Below, piece after piece: positions 21,682 to 48,526 of a stretch of 60,356 nt of DNA. Location: positions 186,001-246,356 of the forward strand of contig JALDZX010000033.1 in assembly GCA_022813865.1 (NCBI GenBank), in the 5' to 3' direction. How positions within the stretch are numbered: position 1 is the first letter of the stretch; each line of letters opens with the position of its first letter. This stretch comes from Xylographa opegraphella. Taxonomy: Eukaryota. Both the position numbers and the translations under genes were made by a program. The notes under the pieces were generated by a model, which worked only from the letters and a program-made list of their open reading frames with translations, had not been told where the DNA came from and did no database searches.

Positions 21682-23779
21682 ATGGATTTCTTCGATTGGG
21701 AAAATGCGGTTACATCAGATGCCGGGGATTTATCAGAGTTGCTGGCATCAATTACTCCGCTTGATCTACCTGCAAGCCCACCGCCTCATTCACATCAGAG
21801 CATCTCTGACGCTGATCTACTTGGACTATCCTTACCCCAACATTGCCATTCTCAAGACAGCGTAGTTGGCTTGGATCGAAATGTGGATGAAAGGTTTCTT
21901 GATTGGCCCTCTACGCAGGTATGACGACCACAGGAATGTCGATTCTTGCATGCTGAATTGGTAAAGCAAGTCGAGCTGGAAGAAAACGCAGGCTACAATG
22001 TCTCCCATGTCGATTCGCATCACATCAGTTTAGTCCCTAGCGAACTGAGACCGACACCAGAATCACTGCAGTTCACGCAGCCAAACGCCAATCTTTTGGG
22101 CTTAAAAACTACTCGGCCCAGGAAGAATAGTGGTACGGGAGCTAAACTATCGCTATCTGCTATAAAGGTACTCAAGGAATGGGTCCAGGACCATGCCCGA
22201 CATCCATATCCCACTGAACTTGAGAGGGAGGAATTGAGGGTCATGACCGGTTTGCGGAAAGAGCAGATCAGCAACTGGCTAGCGAATGCGCGTCGACGAG
22301 GCAAAGTTCCGCCTGCTGCAGGCTCTTTGTCCTCAAACTCCGTACGGAGCAAGGACCCTGGGCCCCATACGACTTCGAACCCAGTAAACATACCTTTATG
22401 GGGGGATGATCAACAAGAGTCGACTCTTCACCCATTGGATCGGTGAGCAGGATTGATCTTTGCAATTTTGCTCAGAGCTCTTGTGCTAATATTTAATGCT
22501 CCTCTCGAGTTGGCGGAATTCACCTCCTGAAGACGAACCTGCATCTGTGTCCGCGATCACAAATGCTATGGCTTCAACAGATTCTGTGGACAACCTTGCC
22601 CTGCCGGGCTTTACCGGGTCCAGGACTTGTCTCAATGAGAGTGACAGCAATGTCTATGCTGGATATAGAGCCCTTTCCGTGTCTTCATTGGATACAGGCG
22701 GATCGAGTGGCTCCGATTGGTCTCACAGTCAATCATCAAACCAATCCCATGATTCCACACTTTCGCGATCTTCCCAGCACCGGCAGTCACGCAGGAGGCG
22801 CAAAACCGGTGTGAAGCAAAATAAAGTACGACACGCTGATCGCGATCGTCCATACGAATGTACGTTTTGTACGGATAATTTTAAGACCAAGTATGACTGG
22901 CAACGACATGAGAAAACTTATCATTTGAGTTTAGAGCGTTGGCAGTAAGACAAGATCTTGCTATTGTAAACCTAGTGTTTTTCTACGCTAAGCTCTTGCA
23001 GATGTGCTCCCTTTGGACCAACCCAGGATGGAGGAGGTTCCTGTGCTTTTTGTGGCCAGCTCTACACCACTTCTGACCATTTCGAGACACATAACTATCG
23101 CGCTTGTGCCGAACAGCCAGAGCACGTACATACCTTTTTTCGCAAAGATCACTTCCGCCAGCATTTACGCTTATTTCACAATAAGTGTGATTATCACGCT
23201 CCTGCTATGGACAGCTGGGTAAGCTACGACTACGACGTACGCTCTCGATGCGGCTTTTGCAATACTGAGATTCATAGCTGGCCAGAAAGAGTCGAACATC
23301 TTTCAGTACACTTCAAAAAAGGGACTACCATGAAAGACTGGAAAGGAGATCATGGATTTGAACCAAGAATTGAAGACATTGTAGAGAACGCTGTCCCTCC
23401 GTACATGATACAATTCGAAAAAACAACTCCTGATCCCTTTTCCGCCGAGAGCGATTCTCATCGGCGCACAGCGATACTCAACTCAGACTCTACAATACAT
23501 TGGACATCGGCGTCGCAATGTGGGTACTTAGACCTGCAAAAGCAGCTAGACTCGTACATCAAAGAGCAGATTGCGAGGGACCACGTTCCTACTGACCACG
23601 AGATCCGAGATCATGCTCGTGTACTTGTCTTTGGCGGGGACGATACTTGGAACCAGACTCGAGCGGATATCCCGGAGTGGCTTGAGCACTTCAAATTGCG
23701 TGCCGGTTTGATCTCTCTTCCTGCTATACCTGGGCGGAACGCCTACGTTGGCCGCGATAAGGCATCCTCGGGCTCCTGA
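21682..23779 (+). CDS. TALE/KN-type homeobox plus C2H2 zinc-finger transcription factor
   Basis: HPYPTELERE...QISNWLANARRR homeodomain; YECTFCTDNFKTKYDWQRHEKTYH; further C2H2-like motifs (CGFC...HLSVHF); three introns. Confidence 0.88.
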
Positions 23780-31688: not shown

Positions 31689-31840
31689 CCAGGACCGACA
31701 GGGCTGACGATCCTTGGCACCTCGGGAGTTTGAGCCATTGATGCCACGCTCATCGAACAGCTTGAATATCTTTCAATGATACTCTCCATGTATCGTGGTC
31801 CGCCTCATCGCTCCCAATCACACCACTACCGTATGTACTC

Positions 31841-33454
31841 ATGGTGTTGCCCGAGAGCGATTGCGACGACTGCGTACCTGTGTATCTCCGGAGAAGGGGG
31901 CAGGCCTCAACAGCAATAATATTCTCGTCTTTGCCATTTCTTGTCACCTTTCTCTTCGTCGCTACACTCGTCTCCCAAAAGCTCTTTCCATTACTTTCAG
32001 CAGAGCTAGACTTGAAGAATGGTCAACATAACCCCAAGGCGCTACAGCCACAACTCAATATCCCAGCTGGATCATCCTCAAAATCCGTCCAGTCATTCTC
32101 AAAACCCGCCCTCAACCGAATCTCTGCCTTTACCTTCTCGACGACAATAGCATTGGCAGCCGTCTTAGCAGAGCTTGTTCTCTGCGAAATTTCTGATACT
32201 ATTAATCCAGCAGCTAGAGGGGTCGCCTTACGGATCACTGTTTTCCTGCTACTCATTCTCCTGATCATAATAATTCCCTCGTTGGAGATACACTCTATTA
32301 TATCAGCTGCCGGGTGGAAATATACTGGCAGGGACTCGGGAAGGCTTAAGCTGGCTTGGATCCTCCATTTGGCCGGGCTCGCGTTATGGCTCTTGGGTTT
32401 CTGGTGGAGTGGGCAGATACTATTGGCTAGGCACCATCATGAAAATAGTGCAAATAGTCATGGGTATGGAATTGATACCATTGTTGAGCATGTTGGCGTC
32501 ATTGGGATCTCTTTGATGGCACTTCTCTCCGGTTTCGCATCGGTCAGCTCACCCTGGCAAAACTTTGGGGCGCGGCCAAAGCCCGTCAGCGAGTCAACTA
32601 TAGCCGGTAAGCAAGCTGGCTTAGACGCTACAAACGATATGCTGGCGACCAAGCGGTCTCGTTTCCGAGCTTTGCAACGAAAGATGTCAGACGCCCCAGC
32701 TGAAGGTTTTCTTCAGAAAGCTATGGGATCCTTCCGCGGTAATGCTGACATCGCAGAACGAAAGAGCCTTGAGTTCGAGATATCTGGTCTTGACAACATG
32801 GCGCTGTCACTCTCTACCCACCTTTCTCTTCTCCAAGCTCGTCTACATCAGCAACGTCGATCAAAAAGTCCTCTTGGTCGTCTACTTCTTACCGCCTCAT
32901 TTATCTTCTCCGTCTACTGTATCTATCGTATCTTCACGACTTCCCTTACCGCCGTCCGCCGCAGTCTTGCGCCGACTGGTCATCAATTTATAGGTTCCGA
33001 TCCTATCAACAATATCCTCGCCCTCCTAGTGAAACACTACGACTCTCACCTGGATCGTGAAGCCTGGACACGCCAGATCTCGTTTTTCCTGTCTGGTATC
33101 ATGCTTTTCGCCTCCTTCTCCTCCGTCCTGCAAACATTTCACTTTTTTGCTCGATTTACTCCTAGTCTTCTCAAAGCTCTGCAAGCGAACTTGCCGCTGA
33201 TTGTTGCTCAAGTGTGTGCAACTTACGTCATTAGCGTTGCGCTGTTACTGCGAGGGATCATGCCTGGAGAACTAATCAGCAAACGGCTGAAAGAGCTTGG
33301 AGGTAGCGATATGCAGTGGGTTGACGGCTGGTTCGAGGCATGGTTCCTAGGTGGTGCAGTCATTACCGCAGCTGGGATATGGGTAGGGAGAAAGATAGGT
33401 AGCGGAGATGACTGGGATGATGAAGAGGATGTTGAAATGGGTAAGATGTCCTAG
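31841..33454 (+). CDS. GPR89/Golgi pH regulator (ABA-GPCR-like) membrane protein
   Basis: 537-aa intronless ORF with multiple TM segments; VGVIGISLMALLSGFASVSSPW, DPINNILAL and WTRQISFFLSG motifs. Confidence 0.87.
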   Translation: MVLPESDCDDCVPVYLRRRGQASTAIIFSSLPFLVTFLFVATLVSQKLFPLLSAELDLKNGQHNPKALQPQLNIPAGSSSKSVQSFSKPALNRISAFTFSTTIALAAVLAELVLCEISDTINPAARGVALRITVFLLLILLIIIIPSLEIHSIISAAGWKYTGRDSGRLKLAWILHLAGLALWLLGFWWSGQILLARHHHENSANSHGYGIDTIVEHVGVIGISLMALLSGFASVSSPWQNFGARPKPVSESTIAGKQAGLDATNDMLATKRSRFRALQRKMSDAPAEGFLQKAMGSFRGNADIAERKSLEFEISGLDNMALSLSTHLSLLQARLHQQRRSKSPLGRLLLTASFIFSVYCIYRIFTTSLTAVRRSLAPTGHQFIGSDPINNILALLVKHYDSHLDREAWTRQISFFLSGIMLFASFSSVLQTFHFFARFTPSLLKALQANLPLIVAQVCATYVISVALLLRGIMPGELISKRLKELGGSDMQWVDGWFEAWFLGGAVITAAGIWVGRKIGSGDDWDDEEDVEMGKMS

Positions 33455-34760: not shown

Positions 34761-37700
34761 ATGTCGTTTGGCTTTGGGTAAGTTGCTCGAAAGAGTAATC
34801 TCTTGTCTTATGTGGTCGAGACCGACTGACCGTTCTCTATATTAGAGTTGGAGACTTGCTCGCGATAGCCAACACCATTGAACGAATAGTCAGCGAAATA
34901 AAGTCTTACCGCTCGGCCCCTTCCAGTTTCCAACGTCTGGCAATCGAGCTTGAGCTTTTGACAAAAACATGCACACAGATACTTCAAATCCAGCCCATAG
35001 AGGCAGACGACGCGACTCGAATGGACAACATCAGGAAGAGCATGTGTCTATGTCTCGGACCACTGAAAGCTTTTGCGGAAAAGATGAGAAGCTCGGAGGA
35101 CAGTCTCGGCGTCTCGAAGTGGTTAGCGGAGAATCATGGAGCTTTGAACGACGACGACGACCCTGACGGCAATGGCGGCCAAGCGCATCAGAACACGCTC
35201 CGAAGACGACTTCGGTCAGTTAAGGACAGGATACACTGGTCGATGATCGAAAGTAAAGAGATCGATGAGCTCAGAGCAGTCGTGGCCGGTCAATTGGTGG
35301 CTGTGGACACATTACTTAATGTCCGAACATGGTGCGTTGGATATCCTAGATGCCCTGGATCCTCCTAAATTTCAGACCAGGGCATGTCTTACAGAAGCCA
35401 ATGTTCGATCCGATGAACTTTCGGAGCGCCTGCAGAGCCTGATAAACGACACCCGAGCAGCATCGGATGAGAGTAGACAGTTCTATCTCAGCGCCAAGGC
35501 CGTGGCAAAGAGTCAATGGGATGAGATTGAACGATGGCAGACACTAAACGAGGAAGAAAGGATAGAGCTGAAGAAGGTAATTTTATCGGTTAGTGAGAGC
35601 AGTTATGAGACAAGGTCATGGACAAAGATCCTCGCGAACACTGTTGGCCTCTGGGGTGATAAACTTCAAGGCCAAGTTGGTACTTTGGCAAGCCTAAACA
35701 ATACTCTCTCCGCATATATGAGAAGGTAAGAGTGCTACACCACCCCATTTCTTCCTTGCTGAATTGTTACAGGTTGGTAGTGTCATGTGCCTCGATCACT
35801 GAGATGATAGAGCGGAATTTGTAAGTACTTTAAGGTTATTATCCTGTAATTATCTCGAGGAATAACAGAATGGCTGGATAGTCACACTCTCATCAATGTC
35901 TACGAAGTTCTTGTTCGTATTGAAAGAATGATATTAGCTAAAGCGATTGAGATGCCACATCTCCGGTTCGACGACCCATTTGGAGAGACGCTTGCGCTCC
36001 CTTATCAGATGTGTAATACATGGCAAGTAGGTTACGAAAGTATGTCATTTTAGGCCTAAGCTGTAGCTGAGTAACAAAATAGCACTTTACCAGGCTCTTA
36101 GGAGCCATGTTCGAGGACAAGCCTGGGAAGCGGCTTGTGCAACGTGGTAGCTTTATGATCATGACCGCCAAAGTCAATAGGATAATCGACTCAAAGCAGT
36201 GGGAACATGCCGTTCGTTCAGGTGATCATCTTTCGATGTCGATGGTCTTGAGACGTCGCACAATGGATGTCCAACAATGTCCACGATGCTTAACATGGGA
36301 AGAAAATTCCCAGACTCAACAAAAGGGCCGAACTTGGTACTGTAACCTTTCACAACATGCTAAGTGTGTCTTTTGAATAAGCTAATGTGTCTCCTTGGCC
36401 TAGCAATGCATGCGAACTTTGGTTCTCTACCTTGGACGAAGAACCCAATACTGCAGGGAGAATTGTCACCATGGGAGGAGAGCGAATAGAGCTCTATGAG
36501 GTTCCGGATGCTCCCAGAAATGATCACTCCTCTTCGGGACCTCTGGTTCTGCCCATGAGACATGTGACGAGTCCGGAACCAGGTCCTATATCCATCGGTA
36601 ACGACGAAGATACTGACGAAGATACGAAGCTGTTTCGACGCATACACTTTATAATTCAACAGTTCAGGTAGGCGGTTTTATGTTTTTGGGCACCGAGTAT
36701 CCAGCTCTGACAAAGCCTTGTAGAACCGATACAGCATCTGTCCTGGACGTTTCTGAGTTGGACGGCGTGGAGAATATTGATCTTAACTTCTCGCCGTCTG
36801 GTGTGCATGACGAGTCTGACGGTGGTACGGACGATTACTTTGATCGAGGAGAACAACCAACTGTATCCATCACCCCACCGCCGATATCTGAAGGATTGAA
36901 ATCAAAGAAACCGAAAAAAGCGAAGCGTCCATCAATTCAAGCTAACCGAGATCGTTCTGTTCCCCCAGCTTACCGATCTCCGATACCTTCACCCTATTAC
37001 TATGAGTCTGCAACCAGTGTTCATTCCAGACCTAGAACTTGTTACTACGAAAAACCAGTTGATGGCTCCAGAGCATCTCGCTTTTCCTATTATACAGGGT
37101 ATGGTTCAGATTGTCGTATCCCTAGATCAACTGGCAAAGTCAGCCACGCGACTTACTTTCTGTCACGAGAGGAAGAGCCAATCCATCCAAGTGAGGTAGA
37201 TGCAATCAAATACCATAATCATTCTTTCTACGGTCGTTATGCACCGAGGTCTTATTACGGAAATAAGCAGGGCCCGGAAGCCATGGAGCACACCTTGTAT
37301 CATTTCGATCATAATTGCGCAACATGCCACGATTACCAACCAAGATCTTGGTACGATACCGCGAATAAACAAAGCGTATCTTCCAGGCATTCTGATGCAG
37401 GACGAACAATAAGGAAGCCAGCAGGAAGACTCAATACCACGGTCAGACCACCACAATCTCGTACAGCTACAGAGACAGACAGGTACTTTGCACGGATTCC
37501 ATCAGGCTACTCTTTGAAAAACTGGGATCCAACTGAATTGCCCATCATGATTTTGGGTAGTGTTTTCGATGCCAATTCGCTCGGGAAATGGATATATGAC
37601 TGGACCGTCTATCACTATCATCCTGGCTCCGCAAGTAGGGAGCTAGCCGGCGAGCTCTGGCTACTCTTGATCAAATTTGCGGGCAAGATAAAGGTAGCAG

Positions 37701-38761
37701 ATAACCAGCTCGATCAAATTGATACGGCAGAGGAGAGGGAAATGATACAGGAATTTCTTGACAGCGGCGATAGAATCTGGAATCGTCTCAAGAACCTGCT
37801 GAAAGTAGGCGAAGATTATATGTGGAGGGCCTATAAGAGAGACAACAGCAAGCATGGTATCAACAATGACGGGGAACTCCAACACACTGAGAACCGAAAT
37901 GAGTCTGATAACAACGAGAATAATGTGACTTATTCCCACAAGGAAGAACGAGCGGGTGAGGGAGGGCCAAAAGTCAAGAGCGCAACAGATGTTCATATGC
38001 GACATCAGCCTACTGCGGATAGTGAAAGTGGACATGTTCAAGCAGAACAAGAATCAATATTGGTAGAAGCAGAAGCATGCAGCCGCTCGACACAAATTCC
38101 TACCGTGGACAATGAATTAAAAGATGAGAAGCGTGGAAAGCCGAAGTCTAGGGCTTCTAAGACCGCTGGTCCGGTTCAGCTGGGCAAAAGTTCCGGCATT
38201 GCGTTTGTCGAGGCTATTTTCGGAAAAGACAAAGAACTAGAAAGTACGGAAAAGCTTATGGCAATTATGAACTTCTGGATTTTGCGGTTCGACGTCAATT
38301 GCGGGGAGATTCTACGGCCAAGATCCGCAACGCAAACAGGACGACGTGGGCAGAATCCCTCCGTCGAGTTCGGAAGCTACCACGGGTATTGGTCTACCAT
38401 TCCGGGAGCACGGACTTCGGACGTCGATTCAACTGCATCTTGGAAGCAAACCAGAACTCGACACACCACTACAACAGGACGCTCTACACATACAAAATCG
38501 AGAGTGGCCACAAAAGACGACAACGTCGTCGAAGTTGCCGGTGCTCCCTCCGTCCTGGACGTAGAACAGAATTCTTCGCCCTTTGATGCTGAAACCCAGG
38601 GATCGGATTCCGCAAAAGGTCTGAATGAGTGGGACTCTTCGGCACTTACTATGAGGAAGACGAAGAAGAAGAAGAAGAAGTCCAAGGAATCTGTCGCCGA
38701 CGATTCCAATTTGCAGCCTGGGAGTATTAAAATTATCAATGACTCTGAAGACTTGGGATGA
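34761..38761 (+). CDS. Multidomain protein: HeLo-like/SesA-type N-terminus, fungal ubiquitin-like domain, Zn ribbon, conserved 'YSLKNWDP' domain
   Basis: Eight exons (34761-34777, 34846-35331, 35381-35725, 35773-35820, 35882-36026, 36083-36336, 36404-36667, 36724-38761) with GT-AG introns sum to 3597 nt in one frame (~1198 aa). Confidence 0.7.
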
Positions 38762-40417: not shown

Positions 40418-42356
40418 GATCAGTCTTCATTCTCATGCGGTGTTGGTGCAGCAGACGGGCTTCCGCTGCTCGAGCGCGGCCGGGGCTCCGGCTCCACGAG
40501 CTGCTGGTCGGCAGGGTCTTCTTCTGCTTCTGCGTCGGACCCGCCGTCTTCAGAGGATGAATCTGACGACAGTTTGATTTCCGCATCCCTTCATAGGCAA
40601 AACGGCATCGTCAGACTCTGTTACTTCCCAGGCCGAACGCGAGCGACAACAAGAATTGGGCAGAGGAGGTCGGAGGGGGTGGGAGGTTTCATTTGAATAG
40701 GTAAACATACCATCGCTGTGCTTCTATTCTCCGGATCCATTGTGCAGTGATTTTCAGTCTCTCTCGAACACTCGTCGTCGGTAGGAGTTTGTATTTCTCC
40801 TCGTCGCAGATGGGTAGGATCGCGGCAAGCCAATAGGGAAATAGTGCCGGATCTGCAGGAGGACTTCCGTATGCTGCTATCACGTTCGCTCGCAGCCACG
40901 GGGCCGAAGCGGCTCGCATTCTTGTGATAAATGAGATCCCAATCTCTAACAAGTCGCTGGTCGGCAAACCATTCATTTGGGCCAGAAGGTCATCCATTGG
41001 TGCAGTGGCACCGTCGCTGACTTCCCAAGACTCAATCCTTTCTTCTTCCGCCAGAGAGACGTCGTCTACCCGCTCGACATCCCCTACAACGTAGCCATCA
41101 AGCATACCCCAGCTTTTGACCCGGAATCTTGAGGCGCCAATACATTCGATGAGACTCCGTCCATCTGGCATTAGTTGCATATTCGCTATATGTAGGAGGG
41201 TTCCATATTGCATAAATTGTGTGGGTCCTAGGTCACCCTGAGGTTCACCGCGGCGATTGTACATCATCATGCCGAATTTCCGGTTTCCGCTTTCAATGGC
41301 GCGCCGTATCATCAGACGATAACGAGGCTCAAAGACGTGGAAGAAGTTGGGTATGGATGGGTATGCCAAGGTGACAATGAACAGCGGTGTGTTTTTGTCG
41401 CCAGTCAAGGCAGCCTCTTCTTGTGCAGCAGACTCGACTCTTGTAGCCACAAGATCGGGGCAGATTCCCAACAAAAGTTGTGACAACCGTTTGTTACTCG
41501 GCTCGTGCTGAACGCCTGGGGGCATGAGTAACTCACGACGACATATCGGGCACAGGTTCGAGTGATCGAGAACGCGAGCGACACACTTTCGGCAGAAGGT
41601 GTGTCCACATGTTGTTGTGACCGGATCAAGCATCAAGGCGTAACAAACTTGGCAATCCAGCTCAGTTTTTGTAGATTCCTTCAAATTCTCCAGCATGGCA
41701 GTATCCAGACGTTGATAAGTGTCCCCGGTCGGCGACATGGTTTGGTACGACACTTCGGAGTCATATCTCAACTCTCCAGTTTCTGCCATTGTGTACGTCG
41801 CTACCAGTCGACCTCCATGCAATACCCTAGATCTCGGAAGATCTAGGAGCTGCGAGCTATCGACGACGTTCCTCCAATGCAACCTTTCGTCCAGTAAAGT
41901 CGGAGTTTCACTCACCAGCGGTCGACACCGAGCGACCTCAATGCCGATTCTTTCCAGTACTTTGGTCAAAGTGACGTCAAGGCTGCAATCCCCCAACGAA
42001 TGATCCTGACCGCAATCTGGAAACGGGCAGGTGAAGCCTTCTTGCCGGCTCGGGGTCATTGGATACGAGATGTTCTGCCTCTTGTGTAGTTCTGGTAAAC
42101 ATGCCCGACATATCGAGTTCCCACACGGTAGCGTCAAAGGGGTTCGGAGGGGGAGAGAGCAGCGTATGCACTGAACGAGGCGGACAATGGCTCTGGCATC
42201 CACATGAGGATCCAGACCCGGGGAAGGCAAGAGGTTTGCTTGCGCATCGTTCTCGCCCATCAACACGGTGGTGTCTGGCGAGAGCCCTGTAGGCTGGTCC
42301 TCGGATGTGTCGACAGCGATGGGCAACGCGGACACTTGCCCTTGAACAGTACTCAT
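40418..42356 (-). CDS. RING-finger / LON N-terminal domain protein (CrgA/LONRF family)
   Basis: Two RING-type motifs (CIRC..TLPCGNSICRAC; CQVC..TTCGHTFCRKC..CPICR) and LON-N FFHVFEPRYRLMIRRA. Last exon position uncertain. Confidence 0.88.
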
Positions 42357-43673
42357 CCACGTTTATCTGGCGATTTGTCGCTCTTGCTCCTCCATTCGCT
42401 GTTGAATCGCTGATAGCCGTTGGCGGTGCAGCAGGGATCACGGGCGGTGAGAAGTTGGGCTGGGCGAGCCTTGTTGACGAGGTGTCAGCGCGAGGGTCGG
42501 GTGGTGGTCGGTGAGTTGTAAGAGACGATGTTGGTTCGTGATGTTGCAAGGTGCGGCAGAAGGGGGAGCAGCGCCAGGTGATTAAGGGATGCGAAGATTC
42601 GGGATATCAAGATCAAGCCTCTCTGTCATGAAGGAACTCTGTCATGAACAACTCCACGAGTACTGACAGGGGTGGGGGGGGGAAAGGGAGCCATTGATAA
42701 TAATAAACCAAGCGGTTTTGGCGAGAGCATGGAGAGCGAGATCAACGACGACAAGACTCGTGCGGGAGCGGAGTGCCAATGAGAGCGGGACCCGAGGTGT
42801 GGCGGTACAATGGAGAAGCCAAGCGGTGCTACCAGATCCCAGTCATGCGCTCGATCGGGCCCAGAGTCGACGTCGAAGTTCAATGTCGCCCGCGATCGCC
42901 GTTGTAGAGCGGTATCGTGGATGGCGCCCACGTCGACGTCATCCACTCGCTCGCTCGATCTGGCACCAGCCACAGCCTGACTCAGCGGCTTCCACGGCGC
43001 CGGCACAACGAACTCTAACGAGCCACTGCATCGGATCTCTGACGCTCGGCAAGCACGTCCGGGGCCGGGAAGTCTGAGAGAATATGCATTAATTGTCAAT
43101 GGTACCATAGGAATGTAAGATGGATACAGTAAGTCTGCCTCACTGGCACCATCCCACCAACAGTCGTGTCTTTGACGATATGGCCCCGCCATCGAAATGC
43201 CCCCCATCACGGCATCAGCGAACATAGTACGACGACACCATACCGCTGTCAGTGTCGAAAGACTTTCTCCGAACATCGGACGCGGATGTCGCAGCACAGC
43301 TAATCGGGCGTGACCTCCGCCCAACCACGACCCACCCCCATGGCACATTTTAATTTCCCATATGGCACCCATAATCGCATAATCCCATTCCAAGCACCAC
43401 GCTCGCCGAGCCCCCAACGTCCGTAAGAAGTTCCCACCCAACCCGTGGCATCAGCCCCCGCAGACGCCCCGTTAAACGCTCCCGTCAAATGCTCCATCCA
43501 TACATGCTCGCTCGTCTTCTATGCCCTGACTGCCTCAGCATCGACGCCGTCGCGATGCCGAAACCGTGAAATCCAAAGTGGCAACAAACACCACCGGGCA
43601 TATATTACATTGCATGGCCCCACTGAAATTTCCTATCATGTCAAATACGGGCGGCCCGGTGAGGTAAACGGTC

Positions 43674-46600
43674 TCAGGTCGACGTGACCGGCTTCGCCGT
43701 CGTCGACCGTGACTCGTCCTCGTCGTCCGATTCCTCCTCGAGCACAATCTGTCGCATCACGTTCTTGTCGAACATGTCGATGACAAACCGCATCACTGGG
43801 AGGCGGAAACGGTGGCATGCGAAGATGAACATCACCCGGCGGAACACGGCGACTGACTTGAAGAGCCCCGGCTTTTGGTTCCGAATGCTGCGGCAACGTC
43901 AGTGCAATCCCTCATGCGGCCCCTGCCACACTCACCTGTGCAATTCCCCGATCGCGCGTTTGGTGAGCACGGTATTGCCCAGGTCAATCACCAGGTTGAC
44001 CACCCGCGCTTCGGTGGGGTCATTCTCGTCGCCTGCGGGCGGCATGGATTTGAGCGTGACCTGCGCGAGGGTAGGTACAACAATCGCTGGCCGAATCTGG
44101 GTCATCGATTAGCAAAATTTACCGGTGCGAGAACCACAGCAACATATCTATCGTAGGGCCTACCGAGAACAAAATATCCAGAGAAGGAGGCAGGCAGTAG
44201 CCTAAGGATTGCCCATTCTGATCCGTCGCGGCATCCCAGCCATGCTCGACGAGGATTTCCATCCCGTGCAAGCTTCGCGATATGAGGCCGAGCACGAAGA
44301 ATGCCGTCCCTCTCATGCTCATGACCTCAGACCTCTCGGCAATCATGATGATGTATCTTACCACGTTGGATTCTTCCAAGAATGGGGCCCCAAGCTCCAT
44401 CGAGCCTACATTTCCCACCGCCCAGAGGCAACCCTTCAGTTTGAGCATGGTCTCTGTATCCTCGTGTTCGGACCAGAACCTTTGAATCGTAGATGCGAAT
44501 TCTTCAAAGTGGCCCGAGTCTTTCAACAATCTGCATCCTTCCATTGTTCGCGTGAGCTCACGATAGAAATGAGGAGGAACGGTCCCATGTTGCTCCCGTA
44601 GGAGTGGTTCTTCGACTATCGATCGGGGACGTTCCGATTCGTGTGACAATGCCCGGCTAAGCGAGGCTTCCACCATGGTCACGTACTTCTCATTCCTGCC
44701 CAAGAACCAGTCATCCATCTCCTGCGTGATGTAGTCCAAACCATCCAGATACTTGTAGCCTAGTGAGGTCGACAGGAAGCGAAGAAGTAACGGCGCGCCA
44801 ATTTCGCCGAGGTGATCAAGCGCGGGTCGGCACTTGACCACGTACTCAAGATATGGTTTTCGATTACAAGCCTCTTGTAAGATGTGTACAGCAACCTCAC
44901 TTACCTCCACCTCCGGATCGTACAACTGTGTAACCAAAAGGCGTATCGCCCAAAATGCCACGTCCGACGCTGTGCCTTGGTTGTTAGTGGGTATTTCTTT
45001 GGTAGCATATTTGCGCAAGATCCTGGTGGAAAATATTCGGATAGCTTTGGGGCTGGAAGTGAGAGCCTTTGATAGCATGACTCGTAAATGGCTGTCTATT
45101 GAGAAATCCATATTTCCGAGCAGGAGTTGAATGAGATCCGCCCGATCTTGCAGGTCAATGATACGGTAGAACATATTGAGTATTCGCCATCGTGCTAACA
45201 TCACAAGGCCTTGTGCATCACTGCTCAGAGTCCCCAGTAAAGTGAAGTAGCCGCGGGTCATGGTCTCCGACACTCGATCGGCGGCAAACAAAGGAGATGT
45301 GGAAGTTAGCCCGCTCATTTTATCAAGCTGCGCGAGACACTCAGCCAACTGCCGTAACAGTTTACTTTCCGTCAGATATTGTACACCTTCGTTGGTTTGT
45401 AAGAGACAACGGAACAATGCACAGCCAACCCGGACGTATCGATGATTGGGTTTGGTGTTCCTTGCATTCGAAAAGCGATATTTAAACGGCCGATAAAAGC
45501 CTACCAATCGTTTGAGAAATTTGGTTGCTTTTATTGCCTCGTCGAGTCTTTTCGGATTCAACAAGGGTCCTTCGATTATGTCGAGGATGAGGTCCCACTT
45601 CCATTTTAGATAGTTCACTGTACTTACTACCTGCGTTTCCACCAGAAGCGAACGAAAATGGATCTCATCCATATCGATGCTTAATCTGGGCTTACCTGAT
45701 TCAGCTGTCATTTGGCTATTATTGTTGTTCTCAGGCTTGGTTTTATTGTTCATAGCAAGAGTCATGGCAGCGCTTGTCCTGTACAAGGTTCGATTTACAC
45801 TATCAACTTGGTAGATAATGCTGGAGATAGGCGGCCCTGGACTACTGTCATCGATACCTTGAAAGGGATTTTTCATTAATGAAGGTAGTACTTGAAGATT
45901 TGAGCTCACAGCGTTAGGTAGAGAGTAATTTGCCAGTTTCAGAACCTCTCCAAGAAGAAGTGTGGTTTTGCGCCGCAACGAAGGATCGACAGCCTCTTCG
46001 ATAAGTTCTGAAAGTGCCTTCAAGGTGTTTGTTAGTGACATGGTAAGAAGATTTCCGGCATAGGAACACTACCTTAATGAGCTGGCAGTGGACAAGAATG
46101 GCAAGTATGAGAGCAGTATACTGGTCGATAAGATTGACCCTGTTGGCATCATCCTCGCTCTCCACCTGCCACTGTTGCTCCATCTGATCTGGCTTGATAT
46201 TGGTCACACGTCCGTACGTCGTCAACCTTCGCCCAGCAAGGAACGAGGACGTCCACGATGGTGGTTTGATATGTAGTACGTCGAACAGTAGATCCAGCAC
46301 TAAATCTCTTGCAAATGGTTCAGGATGGGAGAGCGATAGTATCAGAGAGCGCAACGTTGCAAATCCTCTCGCTGCCAGCGTAAACAGGCCAGGCCAGCTA
46401 TTCAAGATGCTTGCTATCGACCTAGCGTTCACTTTAAGCTTTTCTTCATGTCCATGTGCCACCAGAGGGTCCGTAAAAGCCGAAAAGGGAGCTTCAAGCT
46501 CACGCCCAGAAGACAAAATGTTACGTAGCTGAGGTGTATCAGTCAAGTATAGGAAAGCAGAAACAAGACTTTCGGAACCAGGATAGGTGCCGTCACTGAG

Positions 46601-47806
46601 CGCGTCTGTTAGGGGAGCCAAGCCGCCAGCATCTTTGACCAAAGCTCCATCTTTGATCAATATCTCTGTCAATGTCAGGATCGCCATATTTCGCAGTCGA
46701 TCTTCGGGGTGCTCCGCGACAGATACCACAGTTCTTACAACCGCATTTGACAGCTCTTTGACCCCGTCCTTAACATCCAAGAAAACACGAATGAATTTCA
46801 GTGCCTGTTCTCGTTCCATAGTGGCCTTGCTCTCCTTGACTAGAGATAGCATCACTAGAGAGTCTGTGTGTAGACGGCGAACAGTCTGCAGCGACTTACG
46901 GTCCGCAATGGCATGCCTCGTCACCCTATAACCGGCAGCAACCACTTCACGACTTTCACTTAAAAGCATTGTCTGTACTCGAAGCCCGAAGATAGACCAT
47001 GCAAGATCATACTTGAGGGTTGGATGCCGCTTAAACAGCTCAACCAAGCCATTTGCTCTCGAAACATAGTAGTCGGGCTGCATTCCTTCCACTTCTAAGG
47101 CTTGGAGCGTCTCTGCTAGGACAAAGGTGGGGGACTCTGTTTCAGGGTTCGTTTCGATATGCTCGACATCGGACAGATGACCCACACGGGAAGGGGAGCG
47201 TAGGGGACTTCCCCGAAATAAGGAAGACAATCGGTTCTGGTTCTGGCTAGGAGTAGAAGGGCGTTTGGAGTGTTCGATTTCTTCCTCGAGCTGTAATCTG
47301 AGCTCTGCGATCTTCCGGTTCGAAGAGCTCAGCTCGGATTCCACCCTGAATCTTTGATCTTTACTTTGCTTGGAAGGTTTCTGCAGCAGGGCATCTAGCA
47401 AGTTCTCGGAACCGGTCTTGATCTTTAGCTCTTTGTTGATCCTCTCCCTGAAATCGGCTTGCCTCCGTTCCGAGGCTCCTATTTCATCTGGAGTGACGTC
47501 TTCGCGACTGGTCACAGTGCTCAAGTCCGGTCTTGAGCCAGTATGTCGGGGGGCATTCATATTTTTGAGGTTAGAGCTAAAACTCCCCGGTCCAAGCCCA
47601 GTATTAGCAAGAGAAGCGCCTCTAGGACCGAACATGCTGGCGTTCGAAAGAGAACGTGCCTCTTTCGCGGTCCTTGACGGAGGGGCGAGCCCATCCTTGA
47701 GATGCTGTATATCGTCTGTGTCTCTCATGGAGCCCGTACGCTCTTGTCTGAACGGGTTACCAGGGGTTGGAGTTGCTGAGGCGCCTAAAGTCGATGAAGG
47801 AGCCAT
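43674..47806 (-). CDS. AVO3: TORC2 subunit Rictor/Avo3 (Ste20/Pianissimo) with N-terminal HR1-like segment
   Basis: ELKIKTGSENLL HR1-like start; EREQALKFIR, LVTQLYDP, PPHFYRELTRT, LKGCLWAVGNVGS, RGTAFFVLGLIS; two introns. Confidence 0.92.
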
Positions 47807-48526
47807 AACGATGCGCTGTACTTAGTCCAGCACTACTAGCCTCCGTCGAAGTGCTCCAATAATGTCCTCATAAGGTCTATCCATTGGGCACCATCAACAC
47901 TGTTTGGCAGGATCGTTCATACTCATGTGCCAGCTTGGGGATCGTAGTGACACCAAATATTGAGATAGCATGGATACGGGTTGGAAGAGGTTGCCTTTTG
48001 TGAAAGGCCCTAAGTGTCATGTGGTGTCGGTTTCAGGGTGTAAGTGCTACCATTTCACAGTTACCATCACAGCTCTCACTCGTTTCAATATGAATCATAT
48101 GAATCATAGATCTGCGGGACATATCCTATAGTTGTCTTTTCGTGCCCTCTGAGGACGTTGCCAATAAGGTAGTGCTGTATCCTAGGAGGTGCGGAACAAT
48201 CCCTGCACGCGACGAGGTCTCGGATAAATAATGATCCGTATATCCCAGGTCCTCGGTCCTAGAATCTAACTGTGAAGGGGTTAATGGATGAGGGGTTGAG
48301 TTCAAAGCTTGAATGTGAACGTGGGGCAGATACTCTAGGGTTGATCGGCGGGGGCCCTACCATTCCGTATTGTCATATATTATTGCCTGTCTTGTACCGT
48401 GGCTTTCGGAGATACGTTATCTGGCCTCATTGTCATCGCAAATCCGGCCCCGACTTTCATGCTGATCATGTTAAGTTGATCCAGATCGTTCCGTGTTCCG
48501 GCATCTGGCGGTCCCAAGCTATGCTG

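Follow-up and report, generated by a model that had tools for sequence, protein, structure and literature searches.

What is encoded at a locus where a putative fungal immune domain appears to run straight into a copy of a conserved stand-alone protein, and what could such a protein do? We have examined this for positions 34761 to 38761 of a 60,356-nucleotide stretch of forward-strand DNA from the lichen-forming ascomycete Xylographa opegraphella (the window; contig JALDZX010000033.1, positions 186,001 to 246,356, assembly GCA_022813865.1). The original prediction, made from the letters alone, was that a HeLo-like/SesA domain, a ubiquitin-like domain and a zinc ribbon are spliced onto a copy of a protein often labelled 'vegetative cell wall protein gp1', possibly giving an immune protein that uses the copy as bait. 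We find that the locus is a single gene of eight exons (ATG at 34761, TGA at 38759-38761) for a protein of 1198 amino acids. In order, this contains a helical N-terminal domain, probably of the SesA/HeLo-like kind, a linker, a ULD_2 ubiquitin-like domain, a zinc ribbon, an acidic and aromatic motif, a disordered region rich in P, S, R and Y, and a gp1-like domain. Taken jointly, the gene structure and the evolutionary pattern described below are held with high confidence. As a whole they are best explained, in our tentative view, by integration of a gp1 paralogue into a protein acting as sensor and effector, a reading to which we assign just short of an even chance.

Gene structure

When the eight exons are joined, every residue of the translation of 34761..38761 matches protein P0121 of our collection (NCBI MMC26_004989, X. 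opegraphella, 1198 amino acids). All features of the gene lie on the plus strand. Exon 1 (34761..34777) encodes MSFGF and two further nucleotides, and is followed by exon 2 (34846..35331; 100% identity to P0121), exon 3 (35381..35725), exon 4 (35773..35820), exon 5 (35882..36026), exon 6 (36083..36336) and exon 7 (36404..36667), which ends ..CAGTTCAG two nucleotides into a codon; each was placed by its match to P0121. Exon 8 (36724..38761) encodes amino acids 521-1198, and sequence searches locate all the homology to the stand-alone gp1 protein within it. The seven introns all begin with GT and end with AG, with lengths of 68, 49, 47, 61, 56, 67 and 56 nucleotides.

The border between the ubiquitin-like and zinc modules on one side and the gp1-like module on the other is formed by intron 7 (36668..36723), 56 nucleotides with the sequence GTAGGC..CTCTGAC..TAG, and its removal fuses ..IIQQF-R-TDTAS.. 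in frame. This is where the original prediction had two gene-like parts joined in frame by a canonical intron; the coordinates that it gave are verified, P0121 is reproduced exactly, and all the peptides that it quoted are found in P0121. It also gave correctly the consequence of retaining the intron, where the frame ends at a TAG at 36669-36671 and an in-frame ATG follows at 36680.

That arrangement could mean that the locus has two products. A gene for 520 amino acids, comprising the N-terminal domain, ubiquitin-like domain and zinc ribbon, would end at the TAG and a separate gene would occupy 36680-38761; in a variant, intron 7 would be mostly retained and the fusion would be only a minor isoform, or else an artefact of the gene model. 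The stop directly after the donor and the nearby ATG fit such an arrangement. So do the short proteins of 370-575 amino acids with an N-terminal domain and ubiquitin-like domain that are the common form elsewhere, and the ENA-derived models P0001, P0003 and P0004, which cover the last-exon part only; all the gene models are predictions. Against it, stop and ATG are separated by only 8 nucleotides, and the 56 nucleotides between the modules are too few to hold both a terminator and a promoter. Intron 7 is like the other six introns in its donor, its branch-like CTGAC, its acceptor and its length. The gene models of two congeners cross the junction, X. trunciseda P0122 (1204 amino acids) and X. 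pallens P0002 (795 amino acids, partial), three species share the residues right after it (..A[ST]V.D.S[EK]L...EN.D), which precede any conserved methionine, and proteins of distant fungi have their domains in the same order. The ENA models begin inside conserved sequence (P0001 where P0002 reads ..TDVNFSLSG..), as a caller of open reading frames (ORFs) only would give. We regard two products as very improbable. Splicing of intron 7, with both modules in one predicted protein, is supported by gene models and conservation.

The product of a transcript retaining intron 7, 520 amino acids with the N-terminal domain, ubiquitin-like domain and zinc ribbon, would be like the common short ULD_2 proteins in size and content. 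Short and long isoforms from one gene are conceivable.

The gp1-like module

Exon 8 matches no Pfam family. It is homologous to a stand-alone protein of Pezizomycotina, many examples of which carry the UniRef name 'Vegetative cell wall protein gp1'. With 8000 candidates scored, 1119 proteins were homologous at E <= 0.001, in agreement with the original recognition of the YSLKNWDP domain as that of a stand-alone Pezizomycotina protein with this label. Over 100 stand-alone proteins match exon 8 with E around 1e-60 to 1e-64, and an exhaustive search gave 535 cluster representatives with a gp1-like core at E <= 0.001. Most homologues have ~380-430 amino acids and come from Aspergillus, Penicillium, Dothideomycetes and lichen fungi. 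Chlamydomonas-type GP1 is a secreted hydroxyproline-rich wall glycoprotein, and the cell wall label was presumably transferred from such a proline-rich algal protein.

In the canonical protein the C-terminal ~180 residues are conserved, and the N-terminal ~220 are rich in P, S, R and Y. Amino acids 521-765 of the window protein (36724..37459) have the same character, being by composition a low-complexity disordered stretch rich in S, P, R and Y, with a PPAY motif at 36962..36973. Some canonical proteins align to exon 8 from query residue 21-78 onwards. Given this, and the shared N-terminal part, exon 8 has the appearance of a gp1 gene captured in full.

The core follows in two parts, assigned from homology and from a predicted model with a three-stranded meander and five helices, in which the predicted local distance difference test score (pLDDT) is 93-98 for both. 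Part 1 (37460..37855) has the small beta meander and three long helices, including IPSGYSLKNWDP..KWIYDWT at 37496..37606, and part 2 (38177..38320) has two helices, ..SGIAFVEAIFGKDKELESTEKLM..RFDVNCGEILRP. They are split by a disordered insertion of ~107 amino acids (37856..38176; pLDDT 44-74), at which the halves of the hidden Markov model (HMM) match stand apart. After the core comes a C-terminal tail of 138 amino acids (38321..38758) with a lysine-rich run at 38657-38689. A phmmer search with the tail returned six matches, P0121, P0003, P0002, P0001, P0004 and P0122, all of them fused copies of the Xylographa type. Insertion and tail are restricted to such copies (P0001-P0004, P0122) and in part P0005; canonical proteins have no insertion.

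How far has this copy moved from the canonical protein? The congener X. vitiligo has an annotated canonical gp1 of 422 amino acids (P0283; its 90%-identity cluster has 11 sequences). When this and P0015 from Lignoscripta atroalba were compared with the window by tblastn, matches were confined to 37349-38329, so that the 60-kb window has one gp1-like locus. The window core is 60-61% identical to these two stand-alone proteins over 181-182 columns (60% to P0283 in the 184-column core), whereas P0283 and P0015 are 78% identical to each other. Stand-alone and window proteins share the P/S/R/Y-rich region ahead of the core; the window copy differs in being fused, in its insertion and lysine-rich tail, and in a glycine for cysteine exchange discussed below. 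We also compared the 91 columns in which 90% or more of 260 proteins of canonical length agree. Canonical proteins deviate there at a median of 1 column (90th percentile 10) and P0283 at 5, while the window copy deviates at 17, P0002 at 17 and P0122 at 10. The window copy thus retains 74 of the 91, and the most conserved block of the canonical protein, IPxGYSLKNWDP..DANSLGKWIYDWT, is nearly intact in it, as it is kept in fused copies. The comparison supports the module as a diverged paralogue of the conserved stand-alone protein, in keeping with the prediction of a duplicated and diverged host domain that has been captured. From the canonical protein of X. vitiligo we infer that canonical and fused copies coexist in one genome.

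The exchange lies at 37802-37825 (KVGEDYMW), where glycine takes the place of the cysteine of K.CE..MW, a residue shared by 90% or more of the canonical gp1 proteins. The same change has occurred in P0141, and the X. trunciseda copy retains the cysteine. We considered the core as a possible cysteine enzyme and rejected this, given the glycine in both the window copy and P0141 and no match to a catalytic fold.

Recurrence of the fusion

We surveyed the best 150 of the 535 gp1-like cluster representatives, with a Pfam scan of the 31 that have at least 556 amino acids, and found that the fusion recurs. Upstream of the gp1 core there is ULD_2 in 17 of the 31, two of which also have a true ubiquitin domain. 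A UQ_con E2 domain is found in three, in two of them behind an N-terminal HeLo domain (P0248, E 1.6e-22; P0173, E 1.3e-8). NPHP3_N/NACHT with ankyrin and Zn_clus, TPR, and C2H2 fingers occur in one each, and eight have no Pfam family in this position. A local ULD HMM run over the 271 proteins gathered revealed no carriers beyond those from Pfam. The fusion is therefore no peculiarity of Xylographa; among predicted proteins it is a recurrent architecture in which a ubiquitin-type module is almost always placed between the N-terminal domain and gp1. As far as our searches reach it is undescribed in Pezizomycotina: we found no literature on the gp1-like family or its ULD, HeLo or E2 fusions in a search that lay outside subscription journals and bioRxiv supplements.

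Among P0141, P0249, P0253 and P0203 are gp1-like cores with NACHT-ankyrin and Zn_clus, with Zn_clus and Fungal_trans, with C2H2, or with TPR.

Did these fusions arise once? For the tree we used 182 core columns; its 58 proteins comprise 32 named canonical ones, 20 with a ULD fusion, 3 with an E2 fusion and 3 of other kinds. The three fused Xylographa proteins form a clade with 99% support in the Shimodaira-Hasegawa-like approximate likelihood ratio test (SH-aLRT), outside a clade with 96% support that holds canonical proteins of Lecanoromycetes and Eurotiomycetes. The remaining fused cores fall among canonical proteins of Dothideomycetes or Eurotiomycetes, or belong to a mixed group with weak support. 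Monophyly is rejected by the approximately unbiased (AU) test, both for the full set of 26 fused cores (log-likelihood difference 56.6, p 0.015) and for the 20 that are fused to ULD (p 1.7e-6). Terminal branches are about fourfold longer in the fused cores, with a median of 0.43 compared with 0.10 for named canonical proteins. By the tree test, gp1 appears to have been appended to a module of N-terminal domain and ULD_2 more than once in fungal evolution, with gene conversion also possible. Repeated attachment and the rejection of a single origin support what would be the evolutionary signature of an integrated domain.

This pattern might be taken in its strictest form, in which canonical gp1 would be targeted by effectors of antagonists and the fused copy would be pure bait, having no role of its own, whose modification triggers an N-terminal death domain. 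In favour of this, a conserved host protein has been duplicated and the copy has diverged, and the capture is recurrent and apparently independent, with long branches; the partners include HeLo, NACHT-ankyrin and TPR proteins. Integrated decoys, including putative CHK-2-like kinase decoys, have been proposed for NOD-like receptors (NLRs) of Sordariales in PMC12258605. On the other hand, P0121 has no NLR core, and our literature search found no functional data on gp1 and none on its targeting. The core keeps 74 of the 91 conserved columns and almost all of its N-terminal block, which fits retained function equally well. Finally, a simple decoy model gives no reason for the near-constant ubiquitin-type module in the middle. 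We consider the strict decoy improbable. Of an integrated decoy in the plant NLR sense, the duplicated host domain and its apparently recurrent capture are supported and the switch domain of an immune receptor is absent; that the fusion protein has a decoy or immune function is something we infer.

The N-terminal helical domain

The N-terminal domain (amino acids 1-168; 34761..35381, across introns 1 and 2) was delimited by an AlphaFold model and a weak SesA match. The model, of residues 7-168 with an alignment of eight sequences, has six helices and a disordered acidic loop (residues ~100-118), with a mean pLDDT of 77. SesA (PF17107) matches exon 2 with E 0.0016 and 19 bits, where the gathering score is 26.3, from profile position 3 and at the extreme N-terminus. 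For the whole of P0121, Pfam reported no SesA at E <= 0.001. The HeLo-like family PF17111 (PigL_N) gave no match at E <= 1 for exon 2, nor at E <= 0.5 in ten relatives. In the ESM Atlas, amino acids 1-520 lie nearest to three clusters of proteins of 370-575 amino acids, of whose members 92-99% have ULD_2 and 12-16% have PF17111.

Foldseek found no match for the domain model in the PDB at E <= 0.001. An exhaustive fold aligner placed it on MLKL with Z of 9.0 (4btf; root mean square deviation 2.7, 100 residues aligned) and 6.8-8.4 for other MLKL entries, and on coiled-coil (CC) domains of plants with Z of 8.6-9.1 (Rx-CC), 8.2 (MLA13-CC), 8.6 (NRC2) and 7.4-8.8 (NRG1.1 CC-R), values that lie in the noise range considered below. 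The MLKL and plant alignments start at residue 1-2 of the window domain, and each from its own N-terminus. A profile search finds this type of N-terminal domain in 12 of 373 proteins gathered; gp1-like carriers that have it are P0174, P0133, P0156, P0232, P0170, P0223, P0249 and P0224.

HeLo, HeLo-like and SesA domains are described as MLKL-like four-helix bundles in PMC9815663, and SesA and HeLo-like annotations overlap according to PMC4986451 and PMC12258605. The window domain is probably of the HeLo-like/SesA kind, at scores that do not reach the Pfam thresholds. It resembles the N-terminal domains of fungal NLRs (PF17111, PF17107) in its extreme N-terminal position and in being an all-helical bundle. 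It differs in its sub-threshold score, in a fold similarity within noise, in its long acidic loop, and in being followed by ULD_2 rather than NACHT or NB-ARC.

The middle modules

The middle region (amino acids 169-320; 35382..35945) is kept in close homologues only, with phmmer matches to P0121-P0124. Beyond it lies the ubiquitin-like domain (amino acids 325-404; 35958..36253, across intron 5), for which the Pfam match to ULD_2 (PF22893) has E 7.1e-22 and 77.9 bits against a cut-off of 24.5, and covers profile positions 5-84 of 85. ULD_2 is the sole Pfam family in P0121 at E <= 0.001; neither NACHT nor NB-ARC was found by the scan of the whole protein, which agrees with the prediction. The same module of N-terminal domain, ubiquitin-like domain and zinc ribbon exists without gp1 in P0123 (545 amino acids), which has DUF7889 instead, and likewise in the Atlas clusters.

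The CPRC...CNAC knuckle that had been noticed is present as a zinc ribbon, CPRC-x15-CNAC (36278..36413, across intron 6), with CPRC at amino acids 413-416 and CNAC at 432-435. C416, C432 and C435 are invariant in all 19 aligned proteins that have both ULD and gp1. In the same alignment an acidic run followed by the hydrophobic motif F-R-R-I was located at amino acids 499-516 (36603..36656), and an acidic, serine-rich run followed by [WFY]xx[LIV] is found after the zinc ribbon in 12 of the 19 rows (P0122-P0239 included). Motifs that interact with Atg8 or SUMO follow this grammar of an acidic run and [WFY]-x-x-[LIV].

The nature of these modules provides a serious rival to an immune reading, namely that the protein is a scaffold of ubiquitin or autophagy type rather than an immune or death protein. 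It would be a Rosetta-stone fusion of gp1 with ubiquitin-like machinery, in which ULD_2, the zinc ribbon and the acidic-aromatic motif are the working parts and the N-terminal domain is a structural helical bundle. The fusion partners among the best 150 representatives (ULD_2 in 17, ubiquitin in two of those, UQ_con E2 in three) argue for this, as do the acidic run and motif in 12 rows, the housekeeping genes around the locus and the SesA score below threshold. At least one [PL]PxY motif is present in 148 of 252 disordered regions of canonical gp1, with a mean of 0.99 compared with 0.38 in shuffled sequences, and the window protein has its PPAY; the enrichment suggests a possible link to WW-domain ubiquitin ligases. 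The scaffold is less easily reconciled with the bona fide N-terminal HeLo domains of the E2-type fusions P0248 and P0173, or with PF17111 in the nearest ULD_2 clusters. Cores that evolve about four times faster and are apparently polyphyletic would be unusual for a housekeeping scaffold, and putative short motifs are weak evidence. On balance we judge it somewhat unlikely. The near-constancy of the ubiquitin-type module suggests either ubiquitin-like regulation of the protein, or that gp1 itself belongs to a ubiquitin or autophagy pathway.

Co-folding of the gp1 core with amino acids 318-520 (ubiquitin-like domain, zinc ribbon and motif) gave interaction prediction scores from aligned errors (ipSAE) of 0.00 and 0.01, in runs that had no controls and did not use our own alignments, and these scores count neither for nor against contact.

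A possible sensor-effector mechanism

Under the sensor-effector reading that we favour, the gp1-like module would be the C-terminal recognition part. It might tie the protein to the partners of canonical gp1, or to gp1 itself by like-with-like binding, so that the fused protein would be an integrated sensor or bait for an effector that has no nucleotide-binding oligomerization domain (NOD). The ubiquitin-like and zinc-ribbon part would regulate it, or bridge to ubiquitin-type machinery. The N-terminal bundle would be the output, most likely through membrane targeting as in HeLo-like/MLKL domains. We regard these steps as a plausible mechanism, at rather under an even chance. The original prediction of an NTPase-less sensor/effector holds in so far as there is one gene with the stated order of domains and no NTPase; it falls short in that the SesA threshold is unmet and that the ubiquitin module equally fits pathway coupling.

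A number of results weigh against a sensor-effector. The partners of the gp1-like domain are overwhelmingly modules of ubiquitin type, a pattern that speaks for coupling within a pathway and not for bait. Pfam found no nucleotide-binding domain, repeat domain or amyloid motif in P0121, and thus no known activation switch. The neighbouring genes GPHR, LON/RING and RICTOR are of housekeeping type, and no immune-type gene adjoins the locus. The single cases with NACHT-ankyrin, TPR, C2H2 and Fungal_trans may be merged models of neighbouring genes.

The assignment of the N-terminal domain is affected too. SesA is below threshold in the window protein, and is found at E <= 0.5 in just one of ten relatives scanned (P0232, E 0.11). 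The Z values of its fold comparisons (<= 10.3) are tied with those of unrelated helical proteins such as Cbl, IncA, dynactin and designed bundles, and are under the line of ~13 below which the aligner advises caution with helical bundles, i.e. within noise. Alignment by hhalign of a 12-sequence profile of the domain with the HeLo (PF14479) regions of P0248 and P0173 gave a probability of 0.2%, equal to the negative control, with shallow profiles. What stands of the predicted HeLo-like/SesA N-terminus is an all-helical N-terminal bundle, while the Pfam threshold was failed and the likeness to MLKL is at noise level.

Nor does the structure of the gp1 core offer a function for the proposed sensor. 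Searches of the PDB with a gp1 sequence profile gave chance matches only (E >= 1.2), and Foldseek with the core model found none there at E <= 0.001. In the exhaustive VIA fold search the top Z was 9.2, for designed or generic helical proteins, and Cullin and HHARI appeared at Z of 7.3-8.2, within noise. For the phylogeny, the tree was built under LG+G4 with a quick search from a short alignment, and most of its branches are weak. The groups in the AU test were defined by domain content, and a FastTree had been seen before the test.

If the sensor-effector reading were extended to the whole family, a repeatedly integrated gp1 sensor or bait, an executioner of HeLo or HeLo-like type and a middle domain of ubiquitin type (ULD_2, ubiquitin or E2) would make up a new class of NOD-less three-part cell-death sensors. 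These would guard, or respond to, conserved gp1, with ubiquitin-like chemistry or binding replacing the nucleotide switch. We think it distinctly unlikely that such a class exists.

Comparison with known systems

Most known immune-type proteins of fungi are either NLRs or HeLo proteins that act through amyloid motifs. The window protein differs from fungal NLR/STAND proteins in having no NACHT or NB-ARC. HET-S/HELLP-type two-part effectors consist of a HeLo or HeLo-like domain and a C-terminal motif that receives the signal. The window protein is like them in being NOD-less, with a putative N-terminal executioner and a C-terminal module that might be signalled by a protein with the same module. 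In contrast to a short amyloid motif, its C-terminal module is a folded helical domain of ~180 residues with a stand-alone paralogue, and a ubiquitin-like domain and zinc ribbon lie between the two ends. Background on effectors of this type is given in PMC9815663 and PMC12881547.

Likeness to the integrated decoys of plant NLRs lies in a C-terminal duplicate of a conserved host protein, a putative immune-type N-terminal domain, recurrent capture and faster divergence. The differences are that the window protein has no nucleotide-binding switch and that its constant partner is a ubiquitin-type module. Integrated domains in plants include HMA in RGA5 and WRKY in RRS1.

Selective autophagy receptors of the NBR1/p62 type have a beta-grasp domain, a zinc finger, and an acidic stretch with an aromatic-x-x-aliphatic motif, the LC3-interacting region (LIR). 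The window protein has the same order of module types, a resemblance at the level of grammar only, and has no Pfam match to PB1, ZZ or UBA.

The family described here couples an N-terminal domain of HeLo-like type and a ubiquitin-like domain to a rapidly evolving copy of a Pezizomycotina protein that is itself highly conserved. The gp1-like domain is widespread, with no Pfam entry or clear solved fold, and its fusion partners (ULD_2, ubiquitin, E2 and HeLo) are a first functional lead. If the protein is a sensor, the family would allow the evolution of integrated domains to be tested outside NLRs; if it is a scaffold, gp1 would be assigned to a ubiquitin-type pathway. The recurrent grammar of HeLo(-like), ubiquitin-type module and gp1 is in either case a concrete and testable lead, from which the functional steps proposed above are extrapolated.

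Genomic surroundings

Upstream of the gene lies a Golgi-pH-regulator (GPHR)/ABA_GPCR protein (31766-33451, plus strand). Downstream there is a protein with RING and LON-substrate-binding domains (40692-42362, minus strand), then RICTOR (44122-47821, minus strand). At 22976-23776 on the plus strand, an ORF has a match to the helix-turn-helix of Tc5 transposase (E 8.9e-6) and is possibly a transposon remnant. Long overlapping ORFs that match no Pfam family run along both strands between 50001 and 54000, where the G+C content is 62-64% compared with ~48% elsewhere in the window.

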